DNA of 64,000 nucleotides from a virus. The notes beneath the pieces were generated by a model. It saw only the letters and a list, made by a program, of their open reading frames with translations, made no database searches and was not told where the DNA came from. Position 1 is the first letter of the stretch; each line of letters begins with the position of its first letter. The stretch is taken from positions 1 to 64,000 of IMG/VR virus record IMGVR_UViG_3300046703_000247, one strand, 5' to 3'. The position numbers and the translations under genes were made by a program. Positions 15,329-49,007 of the stretch are shown here, piece by piece.

Positions 15329-15651
15329 TGCACCCGTTCTGGCATCCGGTTTTCGGTAGACTCCGTCGAACCTCACTGACACCGGCAGTTCCTCCGCCGC
15401 CCCCGGAGTTGCATCTCGGGTTGATGTTTTGGCACCCGATCCTTGGCAGGCTGCGGGCCTGGTTCGGCATCGGAACGCCCAGCGGCCGCCCGGCGGTGTT
15501 TCTTGGCACTATCAACGGGCAGGCAATCTTCCTCGGTGGGATGGATGGGGCCTGTTCACTTGGTTCTATCAATGCGGTGGGGCTCGACCTGGGAACGATG
15601 GAGGCGGGGGCGGTCCGGTTGGGGAAGATTCCGATCAGACGCGGCTCTTAA
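15325..15651 (+). CDS. hypothetical protein
   Basis: ATGA overlap with previous gene; FWHP(V/I)(F/L)GRLR repeated twice. Confidence 0.55.
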   Translation: MMHPFWHPVFGRLRRTSLTPAVPPPPPELHLGLMFWHPILGRLRAWFGIGTPSGRPAVFLGTINGQAIFLGGMDGACSLGSINAVGLDLGTMEAGAVRLGKIPIRRGS

Positions 15652-15997
15652 CTTCTATGCCGTACCTTTGGGAGACGGAACCCTGCGGTTCCTTCCCCCA
15701 AACCCGCTTCTTCCCTGATCCGAAAGGGAAAGGCTGGAGAAGTTCGAGTGTGGAACTCATGGCCCGATTGTGGAACTCCTGCAAACGAACCACGGAGTTG
15801 GGTAAGGCGGGCCGGGGCCAGAGTTCAATGAGACCGTTTGGCTGCATCCAGTACATCTGTGGTGCCAACGCTCCGTACGGGAAATATGGCGGAATGGCGC
15901 CCATCCTTCCCTTAGCTGGTGCGGCCACCTTCGACACCGGCACAGCCGGCGCGGCGGCCATCCCCAGCAGCATGCGGAGCAGCCCGCGGCGGTTCAT
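15635..15997 (-). CDS. twin-arginine mini-protein with adaptor-like fragment
   Basis: MNRRGLL + hydrophobic stretch; PQMYWMQPNGLIELWPRP resembles adaptor P...Y....LWP.P. Confidence 0.7.
   Translation of the reverse strand: MNRRGLLRMLLGMAAAPAVPVSKVAAPAKGRMGAIPPYFPYGALAPQMYWMQPNGLIELWPRPALPNSVVRLQEFHNRAMSSTLELLQPFPFGSGKKRVWGKEPQGSVSQRYGIEVKSRV
15659..15716 (-). repeat. hairpin repeat copy R4
   Basis: rev-comp AGGGAAGAAGCGGGTTTGGGGGAAGGAACC-GCAG-GGTTCCGTCTCCCAAAGG. Confidence 0.9.
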
Positions 15998-16281
15998 GAT
16001 GTTCCTTCGGCACGCTGGCTGAACCGCGCGGGTTTGCGAACCTCCAAGGTATCCCCGATTTTCGGCCCTTTGAAGGCAAACTGGTTCTCATAATCGCGGT
16101 TTACCATTTTGGCGAATGCGAGATGCTTTTTAAGAATGGCCAGCATCTCCCTCGTGATTTCCGACTGAGTCAATAGTCGGTTTCCGGGCCACGGCAGCCG
16201 GGCAGCCAGAGTGTTGCGCAGTGGAAACGTGGCGGAGGCCGCAGCCCCCAAGAGAGCGCCGATGAACCCGCGCCGATTCAT
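15994..16281 (-). CDS. twin-arginine mini-protein fused to P22-type coat protein N-terminus
   Basis: MNRRGFIGALLG; NRLLT..EITREML.IL...L.F...VNRDY...F...G.KIGDTL.VRKP; TAGAAT just upstream of ATG. Confidence 0.8.
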   Translation of the reverse strand: MNRRGFIGALLGAAASATFPLRNTLAARLPWPGNRLLTQSEITREMLAILKKHLAFAKMVNRDYENQFAFKGPKIGDTLEVRKPARFSQRAEGTS

Positions 16282-16293
16282 GTCCCCATTCTA

Positions 16294-16350
16294 AGGGAAG
16301 AAAAGGTCCTAGGAAAAGAAACCGTAGGTTTCGTTTCCTGGAGCCCCGGC
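16294..16350 (+). repeat. hairpin repeat copy R5
   Basis: AGGGAAGAAAAGGTCCTAGGAAAAGAAACC-GTA-GGTTTCGTTTCCTGGAGCCCCGGC. Confidence 0.9.
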
Positions 16351-16370: not shown

Positions 16371-16664
16371 ATGCCCATGAACCCCAACGTATTGGAACTG
16401 GATCCCAACGACGAGCGCGACTGCTATTGGGATGCTGAGAACGACACCATCGCCACCGGCGGCGCCGCCTGGAGTTCCGTCGCCATCTCGCCCGTGGGAA
16501 CCCCCGCCCTGACCATCGGAGTGCCGGTGAACACCACGACGCGCACCATGGCCAACGTCAAGGGCATCGCCCTGGGGTCTCTGCACGAGCTGATCTGTAA
16601 GGTAACGCTCACCTCGGGGCAGAAGATCGAGCGCTCGCGCTACGTGAAAGGCGTGAACCAGTGA
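16371..16664 (+). CDS. conserved small phage structural protein
   Basis: LDPNDERDCYWD...C.VT.TSGQ..ERS motif. Confidence 0.65.
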   Translation: MPMNPNVLELDPNDERDCYWDAENDTIATGGAAWSSVAISPVGTPALTIGVPVNTTTRTMANVKGIALGSLHELICKVTLTSGQKIERSRYVKGVNQ

Positions 16665-17284: not shown

Positions 17285-18979
17285 ATGCTCGTCCCCCTCT
17301 TCCAAGGCGGCAGCTACACCTCCGACTCCCCCAACTGGGCGGCGGACCGCACCGTCAACCTCTTCACCGAAGTAGGCGAGTCGGGCGCCACCAAATCCGC
17401 GATGCGGCTGCGGGGCTCGCCCGGGCTGCGCCTCTTCTGTGAGCTGCCGACCGCTCCGGTCCGGGGTATTTGGGTCAACGAATCGCGCCTGTTTGCAGCC
17501 GGCGGCTCACGTAGCTATGAGGTCTTTCCCAACGCTGTCCCCCACGACCAGGGCGAGATCGGCGACGACGCCACGCATACGCCGGTCCAGATGTTTCCGA
17601 ACGGCGGGCAGTTGTTCATCGTTTCGGCTGGACAAGGCTACATCGACACCGGCACCGAGATCATCGCCTGCGAGCTCGCGACCCTGACCGGAACACTATC
17701 GAGCCCCGGAACGATCATCGTTACCCGCCGCGGCCGGGAGGGCGGTCGAACCAACTACCCGCCCACGACAAATGTCGATCCTCTGAACCCCTGGTTCACT
17801 GTCGATTGGACTTCGGGCGATACTTTCGACCCGGCCATGGTGGGCCGGGACATCACCCTGAATGGGGCGACCTTCGAGGTTCTCAGCGTTCGAGGAGACG
17901 GAAAGCAGATGAGGATCCGGGGCAGCGCCGGTGTCCTGGCAAACCTCACCTGGACCTGTGTTCTGCCCGTGTTGGCCAAGACCGGGGCCTTTCTCGACGG
18001 CTATTTCATCGCGGCTCCACCGGATGATAAGCGCTTCAGAATCAGTTCCCTCTATGACGGGCTGACCTGGGATCCGCTGGATTACGGGGTGAAACAGGGC
18101 TATCCCGACAACATCTCCTCGATCCTGGCCGATCACGGCGACCTCTGGCTGCTTGGCACCGAAACCGCCGAGATCTGGCGGAACACGGGGAATGCCGACT
18201 TCCCCTATGAGAAGGATCTGGGGGCCTTCATCCACCAGGGCTGTGCGGCCACCTGGAGCGTGGTACGGCTGAACAACGGCGTGGCCTGGCTGGGAGGGGA
18301 CGCTCGAGGAAGAGTCACCGCCTGGCGCGCCCAGGGCTACATTCCGGTACGGATTTCGACCCACGGCGTGGAGCAAGCTTGGCGCAACTATGCTGAGGTC
18401 TCGGACGCCATCGGCTTCGTCTACCGCCTGGACGGCCACGAATTCTGGCAACTCCAGTTCCCCACCGCGAAAGCCACCTGGGTCTACGATGCGCTCACTG
18501 GCCTGTGGCACGAGCGGGATAGTTGGGACCCGGTCGAAGCCGAATACGGGATGCACCGGGCCCGCTGCTACGGCTATGTGTGGGGCAAACACTTCGTGGG
18601 GGACTACGCCTCGGGCAAGATCTACGAGATGTCGGCGAGCTTCTATGACGACGACGGGACGGCGATTCGAAGATTGCGGCAGGCGCCACATCTCTCCGAC
18701 GAGCAACTCTGGCACTTCTTCTACCGGCTGCAGCTCGACATGGAGACCGGCTCGGTCGTGGCAGATCCGCCCATGACGCTCGAATGGTCCGACGACGGCG
18801 GCCACACCTGGAAGACGCCGCTGACAATTACCGCCGGGGCGCTGAACGACTTCACCAAGCGGGTGATCTGGCGCCGGCTCGGAAAATCCAGAGACCGGGT
18901 CTGGCGGATCACCTCAACAGCAGCCATTCCGCACACCTGGATCAATGCCATTATCGATGTCACTAAAGGAACGGCCTGA
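17285..18979 (+). CDS. tail hub / packaged-DNA stabilization protein, P22 gp10-like
   Basis: VNLF.E...L.GSPGL; FLDGYFI; TWVYD..TG.WHER; LEWSDDGGHTW; WRRLG..RDRVWRI. Confidence 0.85.
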   Translation: MLVPLFQGGSYTSDSPNWAADRTVNLFTEVGESGATKSAMRLRGSPGLRLFCELPTAPVRGIWVNESRLFAAGGSRSYEVFPNAVPHDQGEIGDDATHTPVQMFPNGGQLFIVSAGQGYIDTGTEIIACELATLTGTLSSPGTIIVTRRGREGGRTNYPPTTNVDPLNPWFTVDWTSGDTFDPAMVGRDITLNGATFEVLSVRGDGKQMRIRGSAGVLANLTWTCVLPVLAKTGAFLDGYFIAAPPDDKRFRISSLYDGLTWDPLDYGVKQGYPDNISSILADHGDLWLLGTETAEIWRNTGNADFPYEKDLGAFIHQGCAATWSVVRLNNGVAWLGGDARGRVTAWRAQGYIPVRISTHGVEQAWRNYAEVSDAIGFVYRLDGHEFWQLQFPTAKATWVYDALTGLWHERDSWDPVEAEYGMHRARCYGYVWGKHFVGDYASGKIYEMSASFYDDDGTAIRRLRQAPHLSDEQLWHFFYRLQLDMETGSVVADPPMTLEWSDDGGHTWKTPLTITAGALNDFTKRVIWRRLGKSRDRVWRITSTAAIPHTWINAIIDVTKGTA

Positions 18980-27091: not shown

Positions 27092-27406
27092 TCAGCCGTG
27101 CCGGTGCCGGCGAGCGCGGCGAGGAATCCATGGCGGTTCAGGGCTTCTTTTCATGGACACTTTCTTTCCCAATACAGGCTGGAAGCAGAAGGACGATTCA
27201 ACCACTTCCGTGATTCGGAACTGTGTCGGGTCCTCAAAGAACGTAACAATGTCCCCAACATTGAGAAATGCCAGACCATTGACCTGGCAAGCAGTTCCCG
27301 GCGGAATACATCCGAGAGACGGGATGCCGGCTGCCGGTGCGGGCTGCGGCAGCAGTGGCGCGGCAATCGCGCCCGCCAGCGCTCCGATGAACCCGCGTCG
27401 ATTCAT
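27092..27406 (-). CDS. twin-arginine mini-protein with possible coat-insertion-domain-like fragment
   Basis: Internal ATG 27406 gives MNRRGFIGALAGAIAAP; LNVGDIVTF...QFRIT motif; TGGCAGAAT 6 nt upstream. Confidence 0.7.
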   Translation of the reverse strand: MNRRGFIGALAGAIAAPLLPQPAPAAGIPSLGCIPPGTACQVNGLAFLNVGDIVTFFEDPTQFRITEVVESSFCFQPVLGKKVSMKRSPEPPWIPRRARRHRHG

Positions 27407-41000: not shown

Positions 41001-44000
41001 TGGCGCGGCATCAAGCAGCGCAATGTGCTCCTGGCCCACTGGGTAGGAACCGGCAAAACCTTCGAAGGCATCACCATCGGCATGGAGCTGAAGCGGCTGG
41101 GTCTCATCCAGCGGCCGATGTACGTGGTTCCGAACGCCACCCTGGGCGGTTGGCAGTTGCAGTTCAACCAACTCTACCCGCAGAAGCGCGTCATTGTTTT
41201 CAGCGAGAAGGACCTGGAGAAGGAAAACCGGCGGGCCACTATCGCGCGCATCGCGGGCGGCGAGTGGGACGCGGTTGTCATGCCCGAGTCCAGTTTCCGG
41301 TTCATCCGCACCGGCGACGAGATCTTCAACCAGCATTTTCAGCGTCTCCAGGAAGAATTGGACACCTCCATCCAAGAGGCTGAGGGCGCCGGGATGGACA
41401 CCCGGATGATTAAGCGCATGGAAAAGATGCGCGACAAGCTGCTCACGGCCCTGCAGGATAAGCGCAACGCGGAGCGGCAGGATCAGACCATCATCTGGGA
41501 GCAGTTGGGGATCGATTGGCTGTTCGTGGACGAATCCCACCACTACCGCAAGTTGGGGTTCTCAACCAAACAGCAGAACATCGCCGGCATCGATGTGAAC
41601 GGCAACCAGATGACGTTCGACCTGCTCATGAAGATGCGGCACGTCCAGACGACCGGGCGCGGAGTGGTCTTCGCCACGGGTACACCGATTGTCAACACCA
41701 TTGGGGAAATGTACTCTCTGATGCGCTACCTGATTGAGCCGGAAATGCAGGCGCGCGGCATCGGCCGCTTCGATGAATGGTCGGCCGACTACGCCCGGAC
41801 GGTCCCCGTGTTCGAACCGAAGGTGGAGGGTGGCGGCTACCGGATGAAGGACCGCTTCGCCCGCATCGTCAACATCCCCGAGTTGGCGAACCTGTTCCGC
41901 TCCTTCGCCGATGTGGTCACCAATGACATGGTAGACCTAAAGATCCCGGGTTTGGCGGGAGGGGAACGCAAGAGCATCCTGACGGACTTGAGCGACGAGC
42001 AGACTCAATATCTGGAAGAAGATCTGCGACCCCGCGGGGCCGCTATTCGCCACAACCCCCGGGATGCCATGCCGGACAACATGCTGGCTGTCTATACCGA
42101 CGCCGGCAAGATGGCATTGGACATCCGGACGGTAATGCCGCACGCCAAAGAGGACCCCGGCAGCCGGCTGAACAAAGCCGCCGAAATCATCTTCCGCGAC
42201 TGGCAGGACAGCGCGAAGACGAAGGGCGTACAGGCCATATTCTGCGACTGGGGCAAGCCCAACAGCGCGCGCCCCCTTGCGGATCGCGGGCAGTTCTCGG
42301 TGTACGACGAGCTGATTCGAAAGCTGATTAAAAAAGGCATCCCGCGCGAGCAGATTGCCACTATCTATCAGGCGAAAGGGAAGGACCAGCGGGCCCGGCT
42401 CTTCCAGCAGGTGAACGAGGGGACCATCCGGATCATCCTCGGTTCCACGAAGAAGCTCGGTGAAGGCGTAAACATTCAGGAGCGCCTATATTCCCTTCAT
42501 CACCTGGACCTGCCGCACACGCCCTCGGAACTAGACCAGCGCGAAGGCCGCGCCCTGCGCCAAGGGAACACCAACCCCGACGTGCGGGTGTACTACTACA
42601 TGACCCGGGGCTCACTCGACGAAATGAAGTTCGCCAACGTCCTGCGTAAGGCGAAGTTCATCCTGGCCATGATGCAGGGCAAGGCCACGGTACGCGAGGC
42701 CGACGACGTGGGCGGTATGATCCCCTCTCTTGAGATGTTCCAGGCGGCCACCTCGGGGGATCCGCGCGTGCTGAGGAAGATGGAGGTTGACGCCGAAGTA
42801 GCGCGCCTCGAGGCCATTCACTACGCCTGGCGGAATCAGCAATGGGACGAGCGGCGCCAGTTGGCGGACCTGCCTGGCAGAATCAGTCGCTTTGAAACTA
42901 CCATCTCCAATTCCCGAAGTGACATCGCCCTGCGGGACGCGCACCTGCCGGGGGTGTGGTCGGTCCGCGGGCAGACCTATGAAGGCAAAACTCCGGAAGC
43001 GGCGAAGGCACTTGCCGAGTACTCCAACAGCAGGCGAAGGGAGCATGACGCGGATCTGAAAACGGAGATGGCCAAGGCTATAGCGGAAGGCGGTGAAGAC
43101 GCCAAGAAGGTCCGCGCGCTACAGAATCGAGCCTTTACAGAAGCGGGGAAGCGCTTTCCTCCCGAGATCATCGCTGAATACGCCGGTTTCAAGATCCGGT
43201 TTGATCCCATTGATGGGGCAATGACCATCGTTGGCGAAGGGTCCGCATACGGGATGGAGCGGCAGGACACCGCGACAGGCACGCTCGCGAGCGCAGCCTA
43301 CTTCATTCACCACCATTTTGAAAAGGCCATCACCAGTGCCGAAGAGGACATTGCCCGCGCCAGGCGCGACGAGGAACAGTTGCAGATCTCTGTCGGAAAG
43401 TCCTGGCCCTATCAGAAGCAGTTCGACAACCTGGTTGCCGAGCAGGAGACCCTGACTCACGATTTGGGCGGCGATCACGGAGACCCCGGCGCCGCTCTGC
43501 TCGAGGATGGGGAGGAAATAGAAGACAAGCGGGTGGAAGCCGAGGAGACGGCAGAGTCTGGAGACGAGGCCCAGCCGGAGCAGCCGCACCCAACCACACC
43601 CAATCCACCTACGCCGGGCCGGCGGCCGGGAGCAGCTACGCAATCCCGCCGCTCCAGCCAGGCCGGCGCGGCCAGCCTCGATCTGCTCACCCTGGGAGCG
43701 CCCAAGTTCATCCAAGAGGATGTCGCCCCAGCCCTCGGCAGGGTCGCCCAGAACTTTGTGGCGGTCAAAAACGAGATCTTCACGATTATCGCCCCGGCCG
43801 CTCGCGGGCCCGCCGCCAAACAAACTGCCCTCTCCGTGCGCTACCGGGCGGCCGAGTTGGCCCAGAAGACGGACCGTGCCCTGGCCGCCCTCAAGGAAAC
43901 CCGCCGCTACTTCGACTCGCTGCCCGAGTGGAACCGGTTGGAGTTCATGGACCGCATCGAAAACGGCCAGCAGCAGATCTATCCACAGGAGGACGCGATT

Positions 44001-46415
44001 GCTGAGGTCTTTCGCGAGATGCTCGACGGCCGCCGGCAGGATGTGCAGGATTTGGGAACCGGAAAACTTGAGAACTGGATCGAGAACTACTTCCCACACA
44101 TCTGGGAGGACCCCGAAAAGGCCACCAAGTTCGCCGCCGACTGGCTCGCAAAGCGCCCGTTCGAAGGAAAGAAAGCGTTTCTCAAGAAGCGCAAGATCCC
44201 TACTATTCAAGAGGGCATGAACGCCGGGCTCGTGCCGGTCTCAACCAACCCCGTCGACCTGGTCCTCATGAAGGTCCGGGAGATGGACAAGTACATCATG
44301 GCCCACAAGGCCCTCGGCGATCTGAAGGACATGGGCTTTCTGCCATTCGTTTCCTCTTTCGACAAACTCCCGGAGGGTCACAAGTGGATCGATGACCGGG
44401 TCGCCACGGTCTTCGGGCCACCCACCGTCACAGTGAAAGAGGCCTTCGATCAGCAGTTGAGCGACCGGCTGAACCAGTTGGCCGACGCCCTCGGCATCAA
44501 ACACGAGCGCAAGGTCCAAATCGGCGGTCAGCGAAGCGGGTATGCCGAAAAAGCCAGCGGCAAAGTGGTGACGCGCTTCGCCTCCCCCGAGAGCGTGCTG
44601 ATCCACGAGATCGGCCACCAGTTGGAGTGGAAGTACAACCTGCTCTCCCTGCTGAAAGACCGCGACTTCCCGGAGCGCACCAAGGAACTGCGCGCGCTGG
44701 CGGACCTCCGCTATGAGGGGGACCCCGACGTCGCCGAATCCTTCAAGAAGTACGTGCGCCGGAAGGACGAGAAGATCGCCAACGCGGTGATGGCGGTGCT
44801 GTACGCGCCGGAGAAAGTCAAAGCCGTGGCGCCCAACACCTGGGATTTTCTACGCGATGAGCTGTGGCATATCCCCGCGTTGCGGCCACTGTTTGACATC
44901 AAACCTTCCCTGGTGCTCGGAGCCCGCACAGCGGAAGTGCCGGTTGGTGGGCTGGTGATTATTGGGAGGTACGCGGCGCCTGAGCCTGCCGCGCGCGTGC
45001 TCAACAACTACCTCTCTCCGGGCCTGCGGGACAGGAGCATGCTATTCCGGTCCTACCTGGGGGCGGCCAACGTGCTGAACCAGTTCCAATTGGGTTGGAG
45101 CGCGTTCCACTTGGGGTTCACCAGCATGGATGCGGCGGTTTCGAAGTTCGGCCTGGGGATCTACCAACTGGCCCACGGTCATCCGCTCGAGGCCTTGGGT
45201 TCCATGGCGCTCACTCCCGTGGCTCCCTTCACCAACATCCTGCACGGGGACAAAATCCTGAAGGAATGGGATCATCCGGGAACCCAGAGCGCACAGATTG
45301 CTGAACTGGTCGACGCCATGGTCCAGGCCGGCGGCCGGGCCCACATGGACAAGTTCTATGAGACCCAGATCAGCAAGCGGATGACAAACACCATGCGCGG
45401 TGCCCTTCAGGCGTGGCAGGGCGGCAACTGGGTGGGCGCTGGGGCACGAATCGTGGGAGCTGGGCTGCAACTGCCCTTCGCCCTCACCGAGCAGGCTTCT
45501 CGCCCCATCATGGAATGGCTGGTTCCACGTCAGAAGATGGGCGTCTTCGCGGACATGGCGCGATTTGAACTGGATCGCCTTGGAAATAATGCAACCGAGC
45601 AGGACAAGCGGGCAGCCCTCGCCAAGGCCTGGGATTCGGTTGACAACCGCATGGGCCAACTCGTCTACGACAACCTCTTCTGGAACAAGGTCACCAAGGA
45701 CCTGGCCATGGGTTCGATCCGGTCGGTAGGTTGGAACGTCGGAACAATCCGGGAACTGGTGGGAGGCGCCGGAGATACCGTGGTTGCTCTCGGGGGCGCC
45801 CTCGGCGGGAAGAAGCCCGAGATGACCTGGCGCATGTCCTACCTGATTGCCCTGCCGATCGTCGTCGGGATTCTGGGGGCCATCCTTTATTACCTGTTCA
45901 ACGGCAAGGCACCCGAGAACCTGCGCGACGTATATGCCCCGCGGACCGGTCTCAAGGACAAGTCTGGGATGCCCGAGCGGCTGATGCTGCCGAGCTACAT
46001 GAAGGACGTGATCCACTACACCAAGGAACCCGTCCGGACGGCCACCAATAAAATCCATCCGCTGCTCACGCTGATCGCCGACACGCTCACCAACGAAGAC
46101 TTCGCGCACCGAAAGATTCGTGATCCCAAGGACCCGCTCGAGAAGCAGCTCGTTGAATTGGCGGACCACGTTGCCACGCAATTCGTCCCAATGGCCTGGC
46201 GGGGCTGGGTGGACCCCGGCAAGCGGCGCCCGCAGGCCAACTGGACCGAGGAATATCTGCCGTTCGTCGGCATCACCCCAGCACCGAAGGCCATCAAGGA
46301 AGGCGGAAACCAGCCGGCCACCGCCGCCCCGAACCTCCGCCGCATGTTGAGCGCCCCGGCCTCGGGCTACCGTGGCGGCTCACTCAAGCAACTCGGCCGC
46401 CCCGCCGGCTACTGA
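29055..46415 (+). CDS. giant polyvalent internal virion protein: SLT transglycosylase, 2H phosphoesterase, DarB-like N6-MTase + SNF2 helicase, HExxH module, C-terminal LPD-type region
   Basis: RES...SPKKARGVMQLMP...ALAAYNAG (SLT); HVT/HAT (2H); LEPAVGVGNF, ISNVPF (MTase); HWVGTGKT, VDESH, ATGTP, QREGRALRQGN (SF2); IHEIGH. Confidence 0.9.
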   Translation: MPLTDTPDSFVPDVPTPEEVEAELRAAAKAHGLDEDLALRVANRESRLTQSATSPKKARGVMQLMPETAKTLGVDPEDWQQNIQGGVKLLKSNLDYYKGDTRKALAAYNAGRGPVDKYNGVPPYKETQEYVDNILGKPVAPPPSFEPDPPSFEADQPVTIPGLLKPGNIDLTARPVHKNPDGTTSTVLSMRFGEDGKEILVPKVSEDGTWILSDEEAVDTYHKTGKHLGIFKDVPSANAYAQQLHEDYASGRIKLKTPGAADPPSFEADQPTALQVPAQIPSRAELATMGERLGVLRMTLDTQAEQMARNRAALEAEAQQFTPKTPPEQLAAFDQKVKLHNLDLAEFQNAVAGHAKDIEAYNAGTAAFNENLGRYDQAMKVPPGTQRTGLPGMPLTRMPVQVQPSGVLGLAKESLPWKIANTQAFKALGLPTTADAYDYSVEAAKKLVAKVLGEPSETTARKHPGVAATLTFGARVARLFPEVADFILTPAGTATAIATAVAPPAVVAGVGAAFSTDIALKANDAIEVARTNPTPENIGEAVKLSAMALLPFLRPAAELGRKVERGIEQHNVQAAQLVERERTQGLGKEWGQAILGEEPVRVEIAGKSHTIQALGGNPVAGSVRPRPTYQVVDDATGKAVYSGEAPAVQGYLEQQQAVRVGGLVTSVDQISAQLDTEYSKAVADRAVAQSVRDQIRQLQKFSPEQLKAEQAKGKVILDHEAELNQKGVAGLSETDLVEVQQHLQMVDDLLAGKPISDNFAEQAVKEADAHISEIQKKRAQLGAEGTKLPQAQRPAAPGPAAPAVIAKGTTVAGGKITVTEVKGGKVGFEKTMPGGQKIRGTMPIEAFRSQFLATSQPVQPQPTAQPKPRETEPTVPSPKPTFSLSEAEQAQYDQVAEFARTAGKPLTDKLLWEKLKIPRHEGAKILAVMKQQGALDQQGQPQALSPQPVVQPQPPGAKPAVSPLATPLPLNAAPVGQAYQGELAGDWSPYYRTMAEAQAAGAKNVQLGAAPEVWNGQKWAGAVSNDAKQQAQPQPPGAKPAVSPLATPLPSEPQTPALEALKRQMSDFYRRRVRVNDRTFVGGVYNPNRSEEERQSIDAQLEEIDSEARSVLSKVPQNDLPELMSADNRMRVLEGDNPLTRNDRGGPDWAAQEWLNRIVEVTPERAALSAPTSTPAPAGKQIAAPQPPAVRAPAPAETPASFEPDTLPRSLELEQKHGLSPAEAAVINHALDRLPQVRKDYSSAAEALQKEALRLAAPANVPLDKIANIKLLKRILADYLDPEQFRAAEAQNKEPWQMTREEFTAPVREDLARWNSSFDELRAKRGGTRGQTPAQALFDAKQKHEEGRKPYLERIAETEQLHERNIRRAVADGKPVPAAVLAEYPDLKPAQALDPDQVYRRAQAEMERRHLKQGLEQLIALDPDNPREDDLGVGNDLEDVTGNLQSIGFSRPEIQAVLEGRRQRLQAHREQSARAAEAIKPAMPGGVVYEAVGKAVGASRDKKDSQMFVWRTDSEKQGYEFLNALGNNLQYGHKDLPAAIRAVAEQNPDWTDLSKTALTALGREEVVSEKKPQVASPESQPKEKPTEYDFASTQVNLPPEIAQAMQEFNAQIPDEDLAVEAGAKYGGETAAKGREEQSHVTLLYGIKSENPDAVRKLLENQPPITLKLGKTSVFAGTDNGDVLKIDVESEDLERLNKLLKDNLEFTETHPGYKPHATLAYLKVGKGKEWSGKDVPGVTGKTVTLDRIAFSDKSGEQTSIQLKGEKPQTTPKPQPRETEPTVPSPKPASSLSEIPKPKAYTFANHKFMSAKDKQLTFKAWITFLRNGLQQKDFTKRLYEQLHQHMGFIAHYNINGFYEEYFLHGEDTERFIQHFDLADHRYGPDSTNGFWMNSDTAKDLNRAMVDEAAPYLPGLLEKAAAGQKAEDLAEAQRLQAKHGAPAPAPVVTHKLQGGGIVQELKSPELRFQKNDHVRWTDKDGNAKEGYVSRVEGHLVFIGTESDQKFGMFRPVMASKVELIEDEGDTPTPKRDEGVEGKQPQVASPRAPAKTEAPAKTGDIERQITEAESDLAAARKLYEGTEDGTLDQEEAIREMHQALAEVNRLQAEAAKENPLLTEQAEGRRQTMPPMPKGKESHWQQLMDDSSDLGATAGEEYVVDYGLWVERGKPAGKEPEKPNAERETSIDRGEYPKGWLRQAAAEFQTSFDKEVAKGLKEIEQETARNAAGAAADAARELEIRKAEIQDLAAKLREHASGDRTDLAERKRLVTAALDLKTGKKLNEDTDALWEQAIRPAIEAIRRAAVDKIEGKQITPDTPVWEMRPAQYLEHRREQALQIPKGSFLEREPGEWRTEFLVTLSKEELGVLLRLNGLPINGTKAMMVQRFQDARALRNQFEGKTAEQIEEEMTGAEIDRALEQLGAGKYGNKLTRAGTILGTIQSQRKKGESVLAEFNYQRAIYRAVGKGQPVPEEIQKKYGAFQTIEDVAAAIPEEGTAEPDKKIRIGDRVTWKGFDKVVRVGTVSHIRHHIENGRERNTLEIDGDDHGRYFPDDVDVTKVAAETRDEGGAGEATAGLRPQQAPAETPAEPTEYALSGDTYRFKNIIRAQLQGKWNGKEKVWIIPASQVEAARKLSKKIEVKPFGQVKTAPAQPPMDEQTASAVIQDLVKTISEAQEEVHFAQNDKDTDKGASTQANEAKLATAVKDLRSVVTEAKKYLDFPNAPESDREALRTQLYRAEQNLRGYERPGPSINQTIEAEKYVEKLTGPEQTYAAKYKDYWLGKIAEEPPYVGVHINPLRAEGIRTHLKHVLGKRVEVTGGPEATKPATETRVPKWGNLTELEAELLRGLNRPQPIGDLFDSIGQHWPDSEKIKVLHALDSHGLVKAIHGGGYERTEAGTVAIGKGPAEAYLPKGTAPAPAPKGSFKYEFQVHGEGGKWSDNALRFATEKEAQAAGDEHLTRWTMADAVRVVPSEDAPNYRWDDDQYKSVRLSGKEEGVQGEKPEVSPPEAPAPTVEEALAIIERKGSAHWEDTTIKVVPHPSVTGMVDTDGTSFSVEVTRNGERNIIEAAPLSLEDAQKKAARMLVERAKLPPLGKKQSIMEAEQPNAPGGIQQPVRSTGARPVEEQLPEGSRAPGEAGNAPQVGRVRDQAGGRGTRAGAGKRSELHPGGGSVPTRVGPATDVERSLPPRSRDVANNRHEHDFRIPDRRVISGSPETRAKANLAAIRLLREIQQDNRAATVEEQETLARYVGWGAVPQLFAGNTSEWKALQNDLRKSLSEEEYSLAQNSTKNAHYTGDEVVDAMWATLERMGATPGMNWLEPAVGVGNFFGRQPEALLAGSRRIGIDKDSLSAQIATLLYPDSGIQNQPFEEAELPKDYFDAAISNVPFADVKVHDPEFRNKIYLRSSVHNYFFAKTLGNVKPGGIVAFITSHYTMDAYGQEARAFRKWIASQADFLGAVRLPSNAFMQSSGTHVITDIVFLQKRLPNAAPAGEDWVETVNKTLSGQWGVYPVTTNAYYKRHPEHLLGEEKLKRGQFSDHDYFVEGELTPAALKKALSKIPGQFQQWQTGATAPRRIALREIRAESDKAKLGALFFDDKGDLFRKTSKGSAEPIPVSADAKQKIKGQLELRNAYAELLELERKDAPEAALDSARKRLNRMYDKYVAEHGPLSSRSNTELLKGDPDAPHVVSLERKWDPKTKTAEKSPIFKRRMLQPPKALEHTADAKDALYVSLNQTGRIDFERMEKLTGKGSTQLQSELKGIIYQDPTSREWEMADEYLSGAVRTKLRQAQAVAKLEPEFEENVKALEQVQPDDIPPAQIRVALGATWVPIDIYTEFATHILNSSTDTPVRYVANHWHVDEPYYSSARSKSQWDTGRMNAHQILEGSLNMTRLKVHDWDSDKKRDVINQPETAAAQAKQQELQTYFERWLLSTEAARTDQMVRLYNDAKNDLRLPTFDGSHLTLPEIVRDPQIVTGGDLAPHQKNAVWRGIKQRNVLLAHWVGTGKTFEGITIGMELKRLGLIQRPMYVVPNATLGGWQLQFNQLYPQKRVIVFSEKDLEKENRRATIARIAGGEWDAVVMPESSFRFIRTGDEIFNQHFQRLQEELDTSIQEAEGAGMDTRMIKRMEKMRDKLLTALQDKRNAERQDQTIIWEQLGIDWLFVDESHHYRKLGFSTKQQNIAGIDVNGNQMTFDLLMKMRHVQTTGRGVVFATGTPIVNTIGEMYSLMRYLIEPEMQARGIGRFDEWSADYARTVPVFEPKVEGGGYRMKDRFARIVNIPELANLFRSFADVVTNDMVDLKIPGLAGGERKSILTDLSDEQTQYLEEDLRPRGAAIRHNPRDAMPDNMLAVYTDAGKMALDIRTVMPHAKEDPGSRLNKAAEIIFRDWQDSAKTKGVQAIFCDWGKPNSARPLADRGQFSVYDELIRKLIKKGIPREQIATIYQAKGKDQRARLFQQVNEGTIRIILGSTKKLGEGVNIQERLYSLHHLDLPHTPSELDQREGRALRQGNTNPDVRVYYYMTRGSLDEMKFANVLRKAKFILAMMQGKATVREADDVGGMIPSLEMFQAATSGDPRVLRKMEVDAEVARLEAIHYAWRNQQWDERRQLADLPGRISRFETTISNSRSDIALRDAHLPGVWSVRGQTYEGKTPEAAKALAEYSNSRRREHDADLKTEMAKAIAEGGEDAKKVRALQNRAFTEAGKRFPPEIIAEYAGFKIRFDPIDGAMTIVGEGSAYGMERQDTATGTLASAAYFIHHHFEKAITSAEEDIARARRDEEQLQISVGKSWPYQKQFDNLVAEQETLTHDLGGDHGDPGAALLEDGEEIEDKRVEAEETAESGDEAQPEQPHPTTPNPPTPGRRPGAATQSRRSSQAGAASLDLLTLGAPKFIQEDVAPALGRVAQNFVAVKNEIFTIIAPAARGPAAKQTALSVRYRAAELAQKTDRALAALKETRRYFDSLPEWNRLEFMDRIENGQQQIYPQEDAIAEVFREMLDGRRQDVQDLGTGKLENWIENYFPHIWEDPEKATKFAADWLAKRPFEGKKAFLKKRKIPTIQEGMNAGLVPVSTNPVDLVLMKVREMDKYIMAHKALGDLKDMGFLPFVSSFDKLPEGHKWIDDRVATVFGPPTVTVKEAFDQQLSDRLNQLADALGIKHERKVQIGGQRSGYAEKASGKVVTRFASPESVLIHEIGHQLEWKYNLLSLLKDRDFPERTKELRALADLRYEGDPDVAESFKKYVRRKDEKIANAVMAVLYAPEKVKAVAPNTWDFLRDELWHIPALRPLFDIKPSLVLGARTAEVPVGGLVIIGRYAAPEPAARVLNNYLSPGLRDRSMLFRSYLGAANVLNQFQLGWSAFHLGFTSMDAAVSKFGLGIYQLAHGHPLEALGSMALTPVAPFTNILHGDKILKEWDHPGTQSAQIAELVDAMVQAGGRAHMDKFYETQISKRMTNTMRGALQAWQGGNWVGAGARIVGAGLQLPFALTEQASRPIMEWLVPRQKMGVFADMARFELDRLGNNATEQDKRAALAKAWDSVDNRMGQLVYDNLFWNKVTKDLAMGSIRSVGWNVGTIRELVGGAGDTVVALGGALGGKKPEMTWRMSYLIALPIVVGILGAILYYLFNGKAPENLRDVYAPRTGLKDKSGMPERLMLPSYMKDVIHYTKEPVRTATNKIHPLLTLIADTLTNEDFAHRKIRDPKDPLEKQLVELADHVATQFVPMAWRGWVDPGKRRPQANWTEEYLPFVGITPAPKAIKEGGNQPATAAPNLRRMLSAPASGYRGGSLKQLGRPAGY
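31649..31705 (-). repeat. hairpin repeat R12, in-frame in giant gene
   Basis: Encodes PKPRETEPTVPSPKPTFSL. Confidence 0.85.
31908..31962 (-). repeat. hairpin repeat R13, in-frame
   Basis: Encodes PQPPGAKPAVSPLATPLP; identical to R14 over ~55 bp. Confidence 0.9.
32150..32205 (-). repeat. hairpin repeat R14, in-frame
   Basis: Encodes PQPPGAKPAVSPLATPLP. Confidence 0.9.
33741..33795 (+). repeat. hairpin repeat R15, in-frame
   Basis: AGGGAAGAAGTGGTCTCGGAGAAGAAACCGCAGGTTGCGTCTCCGGAGTCTCAGC; left edge of 2H domain. Confidence 0.85.
34367..34423 (-). repeat. hairpin repeat R16, in-frame
   Basis: Encodes PQPRETEPTVPSPKPASSL; close to R12; right edge of 2H domain. Confidence 0.85.
35136..35191 (+). 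repeat. hairpin repeat R17, in-frame
   Basis: AGGGATGAAGGGGTCGAGGGGAAGCAACCGCAGGTGGCGTCCCCTCGGGCTCCAGC. Confidence 0.85.
36729..36787 (+). repeat. hairpin repeat R18, in-frame
   Basis: AGGGATGAAGGGGGCGCGGGGGAAGCAACC-GCAG-GGTTGCGTCCCCAGCAGGCTCCGGC. Confidence 0.85.
38016..38071 (+). repeat. hairpin repeat R19, in-frame
   Basis: AAGGAAGAGGGGGTGCAGGGGGAGAAACC-GGA-GGTTTCGCCTCCTGAAGCGCCGGC. Confidence 0.8.
38356..38619 (+). CDS. putative overprinted small gene (TnpV-like) in an alternative frame of the giant gene
   Basis: CATAAT and GGAGG upstream; protein-like W....PK....LEK.G.L...A...QAE....EW, while the giant frame here is G/R-rich low complexity. Confidence 0.5.
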   Translation: MPQVEYSSPFVQLVLDQWKNNFPKEAERLEKQGTLLKWAEYATKRAGAVHEQALANGASYTQAEDLSLPEWGQPPTLNDPSLPVPET

Positions 46416-48234: not shown

Positions 48235-48660
48235 ATGAACCGCCGAGGGTTCCTCTTCACAGCCTTGGGAGCACCCGCTGTTGTTGTTGGCGCGACCGCG
48301 CCCACCACGCGCTTACAACCTCCCGGCCTGCCTGTAGATCCTCAGTTTGATTTTGTCGACGGGGCACATTACTGTGCTGGGCTGTACTACGGCCGCCGGG
48401 TTGCCTTCGCTTCGCCAAATTATCCCAACCGCCTCTGGTTTTCCCGTGCCGATCCCCCGCGCCGCTTTCACGACCCCTACGGTATTGGCGACTGGGTCGA
48501 CGTCGGCGATTCATGGGACCGGATCGTTTCAGTCTATGTTTGGCACGCGGACCTGATTATTCGCAAGCTCAACAGTGAATGGCAGTTCTGCGGCGACCTA
48601 GACTGGGGCATTTTCTATTTTCTGGGTGATCCCCAACGGAGAGGAGTTCTGAGAGTATGA
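48235..48660 (+). CDS. twin-arginine mini-protein with nozzle/tail-hub beta-propeller-like fragment
   Basis: MNRRGFLF; YYGRRVAFASPNYPNRLWFSR...DRIVSV...HADLII; TAGAAT 6 nt upstream of ATG. Confidence 0.75.
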   Translation: MNRRGFLFTALGAPAVVVGATAPTTRLQPPGLPVDPQFDFVDGAHYCAGLYYGRRVAFASPNYPNRLWFSRADPPRRFHDPYGIGDWVDVGDSWDRIVSVYVWHADLIIRKLNSEWQFCGDLDWGIFYFLGDPQRRGVLRV

Positions 48661-49007
48661 ACCGCCGCGGCTTCCTGGCTATGCTGGCTGGCGCGGTGCT
48701 CGACCCCGAGCGCTTGCTCTGGGTGCCGGGGAAGAAGCTCATCTCTATTCCGGCAGAATCCGCGCCCTGGCCTTGGCGGCACGGACCGTTTCTCGTAACC
48801 GCGCACATGGAAGGTTCCAGCGACGTGGCCGCCATTATGGAACGCCTACTCAATCACCGTTGGACGATGGACCCCGTGTGGCGACAGCACGCGCAAGACA
48901 TGATTGACCGCGACATGCAACGGATTCTTCTGGGCGAGGTGCAGCAGACCATCGGGTTCTTCCGCACTTCCGAGAAACCTACTCCTTCGCTGCAGATGTC
49001 GGCCTGA
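48657..49007 (+). CDS. twin-arginine mini-protein
   Basis: MNRRGFLAMLAGAVLDPERLLWVPG; ATGA-coupled. Confidence 0.75.
   Translation: MNRRGFLAMLAGAVLDPERLLWVPGKKLISIPAESAPWPWRHGPFLVTAHMEGSSDVAAIMERLLNHRWTMDPVWRQHAQDMIDRDMQRILLGEVQQTIGFFRTSEKPTPSLQMSA

Follow-up and report, generated by a model that had tools for sequence, protein, structure and literature searches.

The window analyzed here comprises bases 1 to 64,000 of the IMG/VR virus record IMGVR_UViG_3300046703_000247, which has a length of 83,233 bases, is classed as linear and is estimated to be 86% complete; the phage DNA was probably derived from a peat metagenome. On the minus strand of this window lies a small gene, in the following referred to as T1, whose product of 95 amino acids (aa) joins a twin-arginine (RR)-type leader to a copy of the N-terminal arm (N-arm) of a P22-type coat protein. 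The parts of T1, and the two genes of the same record with which it has to be compared, are the following:

15994..16281, minus strand: T1 coding sequence, 95 aa, ATG start and TGA stop, composed of leader, linker, coat N-arm copy and a tail of 8 aa
16219..16281, minus strand: twin-arginine-type leader, residues 1-21, consisting of MNRRGF and a 17-residue uncharged Gly/Ala-rich stretch
16183..16218, minus strand: linker, residues 22-33, RNTLAARLPWPG, 12 aa, variable across the family according to the alignment
16012..16182, minus strand: copy of coat residues 2-58 (N-arm, F-loop and start of the E-loop) in T1 residues 34-90, NRLLTQSEITREML...KIGDTLEVRKPARF..., recognized by BLASTP, tblastn and profiles
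80926..82140 of the record, beyond the window: the P22-type coat gene of the phage itself, downstream of the terminase, portal and scaffold genes
79706..80863 of the record: scaffold gene (phrog_8865, E 1.9e-13)

The initial annotation had described the open reading frame (ORF) at this position as an antisense fragment of a major capsid protein, and both its location on the minus strand and its orientation relative to the surrounding genes proved to be right. The neighboring structural genes are encoded on the plus strand, with a gp77-like adaptor (16371..16664) and a 564-aa protein (17285..18979; phrog_578, E 4e-104) flanking T1, which thus lies antisense to the late operon. A stop within about 8 aa of the coat-like part had been stated as well, and SQRAEGTS, i.e., 8 residues, is what separates ...RKPARF from the stop codon. 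The protein sequence quoted at that time was exact in its letters, although 16 residues (TFPLRNTLAARLPWPG) had been dropped between MNRRGFIGALLGAAASA, which ends in ...AAASA, and NRLLTQ.... That the phage's own coat gene is absent from the window was also noted correctly, as this gene is located close to the other end of the record.

Residues 34-87 of T1 align with residues 2-55 of the phage's own coat without any gap (BLASTP, 27 of 54 residues identical, E 5e-16). Since this alignment starts at coat residue 2, the copy begins exactly behind the coat start codon. A tblastn search with T1 within the phage genome matched the same coat gene (E 1.2e-14). At the level of profiles, phrog_283 ("major head protein") recognized T1 at E 5.4e-6, with T1 residues 33-90 on profile positions 2-56 of 385, and so did a custom profile based on 21 full-length coat sequences, at E 8.5e-27 over columns 3-59 of 400. 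Among solved structures this custom profile matched Sf6 gp5 (E 1.4e-31) and the P22 coat (E 9.5e-11). The assignment to a P22-type coat fragment is therefore borne out, but not by the family model that had been named as a check: T1 gave no match to PF11651 at E<=1, and a search of the genome at E<=10 returned the full coat only (80941-82125), which belongs to this family with 137.9 bits (E 8.6e-42). The copied part had been placed in the N-arm/E-loop region. This is roughly correct, since by the P22 gp5 domain map (N-arm 2-30, F-loop 34-50, E-loop 51-78; PMC9965877) it spans N-arm and F-loop and reaches just into the E-loop.

Residues 34-90 of T1 are thus homologous to, and from coat residue 2 on in register with, the N-arm/F-loop of P22-type coats (PF11651; P22 gp5 residues 2-50; Sf6 gp5, PDB 5L35). 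In contrast to these, T1 holds only about 57 of about 404 residues, goes unscored by the PF11651 model itself, and is devoid of P-, A- and I-domain, so that it cannot form a shell subunit; its hydrophobic RR leader, in turn, is present in no coat. Judged by its sequence, T1 is a homologous fragment of a coat and not a coat protein. The Atlas structure model of T1 (mean predicted local distance difference test score, pLDDT, 0.54) consists mostly of one long helix behind a hydrophobic start, and an Atlas search with T1 returned no usable feature match, only low-confidence helical look-alikes.

Proteins of the same build recur in other sequences. When 1.84 billion representative proteins were searched exhaustively without a profile, 476 hits were obtained at E<=1e-3, and the best 150 of these 476 were classified with the coat profile. 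This set contained 41 full-length coats, 57 short proteins with a coat-like start, whose ends are scattered over profile positions 57-305 as would be expected from cuts at contig ends, 49 short proteins with an N-terminal extension, and 3 others (two spurious repeat proteins and one partial match). An RRxF-type motif was present in the extension of 44 of the 49 short extended proteins, and 39 of the 49 end at coat-profile position 55-64, which is the same place as in T1. The recurring members with leader and N-arm amount to dozens of proteins that are mutually less than 50% identical. Two high-ranked proteins without any coat-profile match were set aside as spurious, namely P0002 (5446 aa, 15 stretches) and P0003 (605 aa, 9 stretches), the latter being a low-complexity repeat protein. 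When a profile of a 20-protein alignment was run against a collection of 5.8 billion clusters, 42 proteins were found at E<=1e-5, all of them unnamed or labeled "hypothetical protein" and none with a Pfam domain. The RR-leader N-arm family as such is absent from Pfam, NCBIfam and PHROGs, and no description of leader-tagged capsid fragments was found in the full-text literature (open-access papers and bioRxiv).

The family was delimited to proteins of <200 aa that carry an RRxF leader and a capsid piece while a full-length coat is encoded elsewhere in the genome. T1, with its 95 aa, has both parts and stops 8 residues after the capsid piece; an own full-length coat was found for T1's phage as well as for 5 out of 5 other records tested. 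RR-leader capsid-piece mini-proteins are a large undescribed phage family. In a cultured-phage collection T1 matched 37 records, none of which (0/37) covers at least 80% of its length; among the 30 rows listed, the matched feature is annotated as coat, major capsid, major head or hypothetical protein. The family is accordingly absent from this collection, whereas it is widespread in uncultured phages from soil, peat and water.

The N-arm is not the only coat region found behind such leaders. A first leader set comprised 46 proteins, i.e., 41 loci (after 6 duplicates and 2 plain coat hits had been dropped) plus T1 and four further genes of the window, T2 to T5, described below. Nine of the 46 matched the coat profile at E<1e-3, in differing regions: N-arm pieces occur in T1, L008, L007, L035 and L025, pieces of coat columns 236-308 in L054, L052 and L024, and a piece of columns 345-390 in L040. 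The I-domains of CUS-3 and Sf6, for which structures are solved, map to columns 240-322. When the leader pattern was made stricter, matches to the coat profile at E<=0.01 were obtained for 14 of 60 non-identical leader ORFs, and among about 100 viral contigs related leaders were found with I-domain or C-terminal coat pieces. Two further leader proteins, L086 (10001, 81 aa) and L091 (2943, 96 aa), contain pieces (residues 9-44, 121-144) of a 386-aa major head protein (L077:15911-17068) that falls into another major-head family, phrog_9953 (E 1.8e-10), which indicates that the design is not tied to P22-type coats. Within IMG/VR, two leader subfamilies are represented by 48 and 51 loci. In these large subfamilies the motif DPERLLWVPGxKLISIP (48 loci) or VRTFPFRVFSFP (51 loci) is conserved directly behind the hydrophobic stretch, and at the position of the T1 linker other subfamilies show DPERLLWVPGxKLISIP or VRTFPFRVFSFPSE. 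The same leader type was also seen on contigs binned with a metagenome-assembled genome (MAG) of Bryobacteraceae and one of Armatimonadota, which gives only a hint to the host of the phage analyzed here.

Several members deviate from this simple build. P0084 (246 aa) and P0150 (314 aa) have, by eye, a coat C-terminal-like stretch following leader and N-arm, and P0027 (108 aa) a spine-helix-like stretch ahead of the N-arm. Record G001, a complete 72.9-kb phage with an RR-leader N-arm gene, additionally contains leaderless "mini-coat" paralogues (L064, 55485-55637; L063, 35398-35499); here, coat columns 1-24 are fused to columns 338-388 in a frame of 240 aa, and a 195-aa frame corresponds to columns 81-115.

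The way in which the N-arm copies have changed points to constraint rather than decay. Per-column information correlates between 48 fusions and 42 coats (r = 0.76 over 58 columns), and 18 columns have the same residue in both groups (N3, L6, T7, I11, T12, E14, L16, L19, L23, R31, Y33, F37, G41, I44, G45, T47, R51 and P53). With 90.3 bits T1 reached the highest N-arm profile score of 47 fusions (fusion median 54.6 bits), a value that genuine coats reach as well (22 held-out sequences, median 87.9 bits). At the same time T1 is at most 60% identical to any sampled coat (best 34/57), and a word-based search for longer proteins closer to T1 found none. As T1 has diverged by at least 40% and still scores like a coat, it is not in neutral decay. 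Only one leader-plus-coat-piece pair was close enough for estimating the ratio of nonsynonymous to synonymous substitution rates (dN/dS), namely L052/L054, which carry an I-domain piece and hence a fragment type different from that of T1; for this pair dN was 0.028, dS 0.40 and the ratio 0.068. The two outcomes by which the initial annotation would have been overturned, i.e., no coat-family match or neutral decay into a pseudogene remnant, were thus both not observed, since coat-family profiles match T1 and constraint is seen.

Coding signals and the immediate surroundings of T1 also bear on its integrity. The additional features in question, together with the further genes of the window that start with MNRRG(F/L), are:

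15635..15997, minus strand: T2, second RR-leader gene, 120 aa, whose ATG overlaps the T1 stop codon (ATGA)
16294..16345, minus strand: hairpin repeat on the T1 side of the cassette, GAAACC-N3-GGTTTC core with outer stem, followed by CTTTTCTTCCCTT
15667..15716, plus strand: inverted partner copy of the hairpin at the other cassette end, inside the 3' end of T2
16288..16293, minus strand: -10-like box TAGAAT, 6 nt upstream of the T1 ATG and directly behind CTTTTCTTCCCTT
27092..27406, minus strand: T3, MNRRG(F/L) gene
48235..48660, plus strand: T4, MNRRG(F/L) gene
48657..49007, plus strand: T5, MNRRG(F/L) gene, overlapping T4 by ATGA

T1 and T2 probably form a two-gene operon. The arms of the two hairpins that bracket it (15678-15716 and 16294-16332) are 72% complementary. 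Only three open codons precede the ATG of T1, and its frame has a coding pattern of guanine-cytosine (GC) content (GC1/2/3 = 0.57/0.48/0.66); the third-position value (GC3) of 0.66 lies below that of the core genes (0.71-0.83), and the GC3 of T3 and T4 is likewise lower. No Shine-Dalgarno sequence is present at a usable distance before the T1 ATG, and a consensus sigma-70 scan found no full promoter at T1. The arrangement of hairpin, TAGAAT and ATG is common to T1, T3 (27406) and T4 (48235), and -10-like hexamers 6-8 nt from the start also occur in several unrelated RR-leader genes of other viral contigs. Given the position of a -10-like box just 6 nt before the start codon, the missing Shine-Dalgarno sequence and the shared geometry, T1, T3 and T4 are probably independently transcribed accessory genes with leaderless mRNAs.

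These data also allow judging whether T1 might be a dead remnant, i.e., part of a coat gene that recombination has left beside a repeat and that is open merely by chance in a GC-rich genome. T1 is indeed located next to hairpin repeats of recombinogenic appearance, T2 reads into one of them, and a decayed leader-like stretch exists in the same window at about 27141. Close homologues of T1 are also missing: a near-length word search retrieved only T1 itself, a search of viral contigs for relatives only two leader-level matches, a search of metagenome contigs none, and no related phage was found in IMG/VR by the neighboring hub gene or by the own coat. Nevertheless, a remnant is hardly to be expected to share architecture and end point with dozens of proteins that are mutually below 50% identity, to keep a coat-like score of 90 bits at a divergence of at least 40% from every sampled coat, or to stay free of indels relative to the own coat. 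The coding GC pattern, the ATGA overlap with T2 and the conserved spacing of promoter and start speak against it as well, and this explanation appears highly improbable. T1 is an intact, selected accessory gene rather than a coat pseudogene, and there is little doubt that it represents a real gene of the RR-leader capsid-piece family. A related idea, a mobile leader cassette that inserts into genes and then reads into whatever DNA flanks it, was rejected, as the pieces are short, internally bounded, far from the intact coat gene and share one common end point across diverged members.

With respect to the source of the copy, the position of the resident coat depends on the panel used. Among T1's own best-hit coats, a panel biased towards T1, it ranks 19th of 26 (27/57 identical residues; best 34/57), and among 21 coats from the leader searches it ranks 7th (27/57; best 28/54; median 35%). 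In the latter comparison the own-coat ranks were 1, 2, 2, 2, 6, 7, 9, 12, 12 and 14 out of 19-22 coats. In an N-arm phylogeny of 61 columns and 90 rows, which has too little power, RR fusions occupy all five rows nearest T1, with the resident coat placed elsewhere. Approximately unbiased (AU) tests rejected neither a clade of T1 and its own coat (p-AU 0.61) nor a single clade of all 48 fusions (p-AU 0.67), and the tree constrained to the latter exceeded the quick free tree by 15 log-likelihood units. By these comparisons T1 is no recent copy of the resident coat. They are compatible with its descent from an old fusion lineage and point to no particular donor.

The leader of T1 carries an RR motif of the (S/T)RRxFLK type in residues 1-8 (M-N-R-R-G-F-I-G), and all 20 family members in the alignment have R3, R4 and F6. 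Behind the motif follows an uncharged stretch of 17 aa with a mean hydropathy of 1.54; in 39 N-arm fusions the median length of this stretch is 16 residues (range 11-23) and its mean hydropathy near 1.8. A length of 11-23 residues suits the h-region of a signal for twin-arginine translocation (Tat) and is short for a membrane helix. T1 and its relatives have in common with Tat signal peptides (PF10518, TIGR01409) the N-terminal RRxF(L/I), followed by 11-23 moderately hydrophobic, Gly/Ala-rich residues. They differ from them in that the passenger of T1 is a 60-residue capsid fragment instead of a cofactor enzyme and that some relatives place the RR motif behind an N-terminal extension of 30-40 residues. 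One relative (P0007) exceeds the TIGR01409 cut-off (18.8 vs. 16.7 bits), and among sequences with solved structures the family profile matches best to the RR transit peptide of PsbU (E 0.01). The phage itself encodes neither TatA nor TatC, so that any Tat export would depend on the host. Uncleaved Tat signals that serve as membrane anchors exist, for example in proteins of the Rieske type. Six family members (P0005, P0023, P0024, P0044, P0080 and P0106) were seen to carry a zinc-knuckle-like CPxC...H..C motif in the 30-40-residue extension ahead of the RR motif.

Based on the sequence features described so far, we tentatively propose that T1 might act as a coat N-arm mimic that is directed to the membrane or exported and competes for the scaffold or for a neighboring coat. 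T1 would be transcribed together with T2, probably as a leaderless mRNA, from the hairpin-bracketed cassette that lies antisense in the late operon. The leader may then direct T1 to the Tat machinery of the host or to the cytoplasmic membrane, where it would be exported or held by an uncleaved signal anchor. The coat-derived part would keep the surface used by the real N-arm and could compete for the C-terminal helix-turn-helix of the scaffold and/or the neighboring coat subunit. As a result, procapsid building blocks of related rival phages might be sequestered or disturbed, or the phage's own assembly might be timed. Since the copy has preserved the residues conserved in real coats, it has most likely also retained the ability to make the contacts of a real N-arm. 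In P22, scaffold residues R293 and K296 bind D14, E15 and E18 of the coat N-arm helix (PMC9965877). Profile column 14 is E in T1, in 83% of 48 fusions and in 81% of coats.

A number of observations weigh against this proposal. The main weakness is one of topology, as the partners of the N-arm are cytoplasmic, whereas the copy would end up beyond the cytoplasm if the Tat leader works; the proposal thus requires hitchhiking, jamming or membrane retention, all of which are hypothetical. The likeness of column 14 to D14/E15/E18 of P22 is positional only, since the solved chains align from column 19-22 onwards, and the I-domain and C-terminal coat pieces behind related leaders would be unable to bind scaffold in the manner of P22. 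The low dN/dS ratio stems from one pair with another fragment type, not from T1. As to the leader, T1 reaches 14.4 bits with PF10518 (curated cut-off 22.7) and has no match to TIGR01409. The term "Tat-tagged" used by the initial annotation is hence justified for the motif, i.e., RRxF and the 17-residue uncharged stretch, but not at the level of these models. Moreover, A-S-A is found at residues 15-17 inside the uncharged stretch, where cleavage would leave a signal of 17 residues, unusually short for Tat, and in 12 of 39 N-arm fusions the RR motif does not start before position 28 (some of them with the CPxC...H..C knuckle in front), which makes a plain cleavable signal a poor fit.

Scores of the leader below the Tat cut-offs would rather be expected if a phage partner used the leader as a conserved handle and T1 stayed in the cytoplasm, either being loaded into procapsids via the scaffold or acting as an assembly regulator or chaperone of its own coat. 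The uncharged stretch of just 11-12 residues in the DPERLLW subfamily (11 in T5), the post-leader motifs of 48 and 51 loci, which have no counterpart in Tat signals, and the own full coat in all five records tested fit such a role, too. However, the invariant RRxF with its Gly/Ala-rich uncharged stretch is exactly what Tat recognition needs, and the best database look-alike, that of PsbU, is a real RR transit peptide; the lack of TatA and TatC genes in the phage weighs on neither side. A cytoplasmic handle is thus regarded as rather improbable.

Taking the leader at face value, T1 could also be exported or anchored on the periplasmic side for an envelope task, such as superinfection exclusion against incoming ejection proteins, with the N-arm being a recycled helix that has no capsid partner. 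Its Tat-type features would fit this role, as would an accessory cassette with its own putative promoter, antisense to late genes, as is typical of morons, the presence of five RR-leader genes with unrelated C-terminal parts in one window, and the Atlas model with its single long helix. What a generic helix hardly explains is that the fusions retain coat residues column by column and share one truncation point, and that non-helical coat pieces, for instance of the I-domain, occur in other members. An envelope role of this kind is seen as unlikely. A spanin pair of T1 and T2 was rejected, as there is no lipobox partner, T2 has no cysteine and the helix of T1 is derived from a coat.

The occurrence of differing coat regions behind one kind of leader in different phages would be in agreement with yet another function, in which T1 is a decoy that binds a host sensor of newly made coat protein and the leader moves the pair of sensor and decoy to the membrane or out of the cytoplasm; different epitopes would then be recognized by different sensors. 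Short capsid segments are known to trigger abortive systems of the host, as in the case of the Gol peptide with Lit or of CapRel. Yet no sensor is known for the host of this phage, a mimic of the trigger would be expected to activate the sensor and not to silence it, and the coat-like constraint of the fusions extends over the whole N-arm and F-loop instead of one epitope. It is therefore doubtful that T1 serves as such a decoy, and we consider it improbable.

Returning to the proposed N-arm mimic, a more specific version of it would be that T1-type proteins co-assemble with the coat or scaffold of a rival phage and drag it to the Tat translocon or the membrane (hitchhiker export or jamming), thereby blocking head assembly, while the resident pair is spared by its divergence and the hairpin cassettes form a swappable arsenal; in this detailed form the scenario is very unlikely. 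Parallels for separate use of capsid genes exist elsewhere, as mouse Fv1 derives from retroviral gag and the Gol peptide of T4 gp23 acts with Lit. As in T1, part of a capsid gene has become a gene of its own there or functions as a ligand by itself; however, these cases concern different viruses and hosts, involve no leader and have established mechanisms, while the one for T1 is proposed. The nearest functional analogue we found in print is CpmB of SaPI1, a competitor of the helper's scaffold (PMC5644958). It resembles what is proposed for T1 in being a small accessory protein that competes where scaffold and coat meet, but it is scaffold-like instead of coat-derived, lacks an export-type leader and belongs to a satellite and not to the phage itself.

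If the mini-proteins act through the copied surfaces, they would represent a new class of phage-encoded assembly mimics. This raises the question whether the host Tat pathway is used by a virus to move or sequester capsid-binding peptides, and whether the role of short capsid pieces is that of a weapon, a decoy or a regulator. T1 lends itself to testing this, being the most coat-like copy of the 47 N-arm fusions scored, with candidate partners (scaffold and coat) encoded in the same record and with solved structures of the N-arm-scaffold contact available for P22. Even with a modest function, this family demonstrates that essential virion genes can give rise to fragments that persist for a long time as separate selected genes.

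Of the five MNRRG(F/L) genes in the window, T1 is the only one that matches another gene of the record beyond the leader. T2 matched neither the coat profile nor genes of the record nor cultured phages; its suggested likeness to the adaptor amounts to a BLASTP alignment of 19 residues (E 0.076), with no match in cultured phages, and that of T4 to the hub protein is likewise not sustained (BLASTP E 1.7). The module MNRRGFL...LDPERLLWVPGKKLISIP of T5 occurs in the 48 IMG/VR loci of its subfamily, where it precedes highly diverse C-terminal parts, coat pieces among them. Overlapping the 3' end of T3 in a different frame (about 27094..27141, minus strand), a degenerate leader-like stretch, LNRHGFLAALAG, with a stop 18 codons in was noticed, which may be what is left of the second gene of a former pair.

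The hairpin repeat found next to T1 is present in about 16 copies with exact core in the record. It belongs to a palindromic family with a GAAACC-N3-5-GGTTTC core in a longer stem and CCCTTCTTCCCT on one side. Cores are located at 754, 5188, 5485, 16318, 19020, 26405, 27450, 31925, 32168, 38039, 48177, 49873 and 55171 in the window and at 76273, 76607 and 79596 beyond it. Most copies are intergenic, and three are positioned in frame inside an ORF of 5786 aa (29055..46415), two of which (31925 and 32168) are spaced by 243 bp. A fixed spacing behind a hairpin was also seen for the starts of two other small ORFs, at about 5262 (plus strand, element 5188) and about 5440 (minus strand, element 5498), and one of these ORFs has a signal-like N-terminus, MNRCGDWLMAAISLGG.

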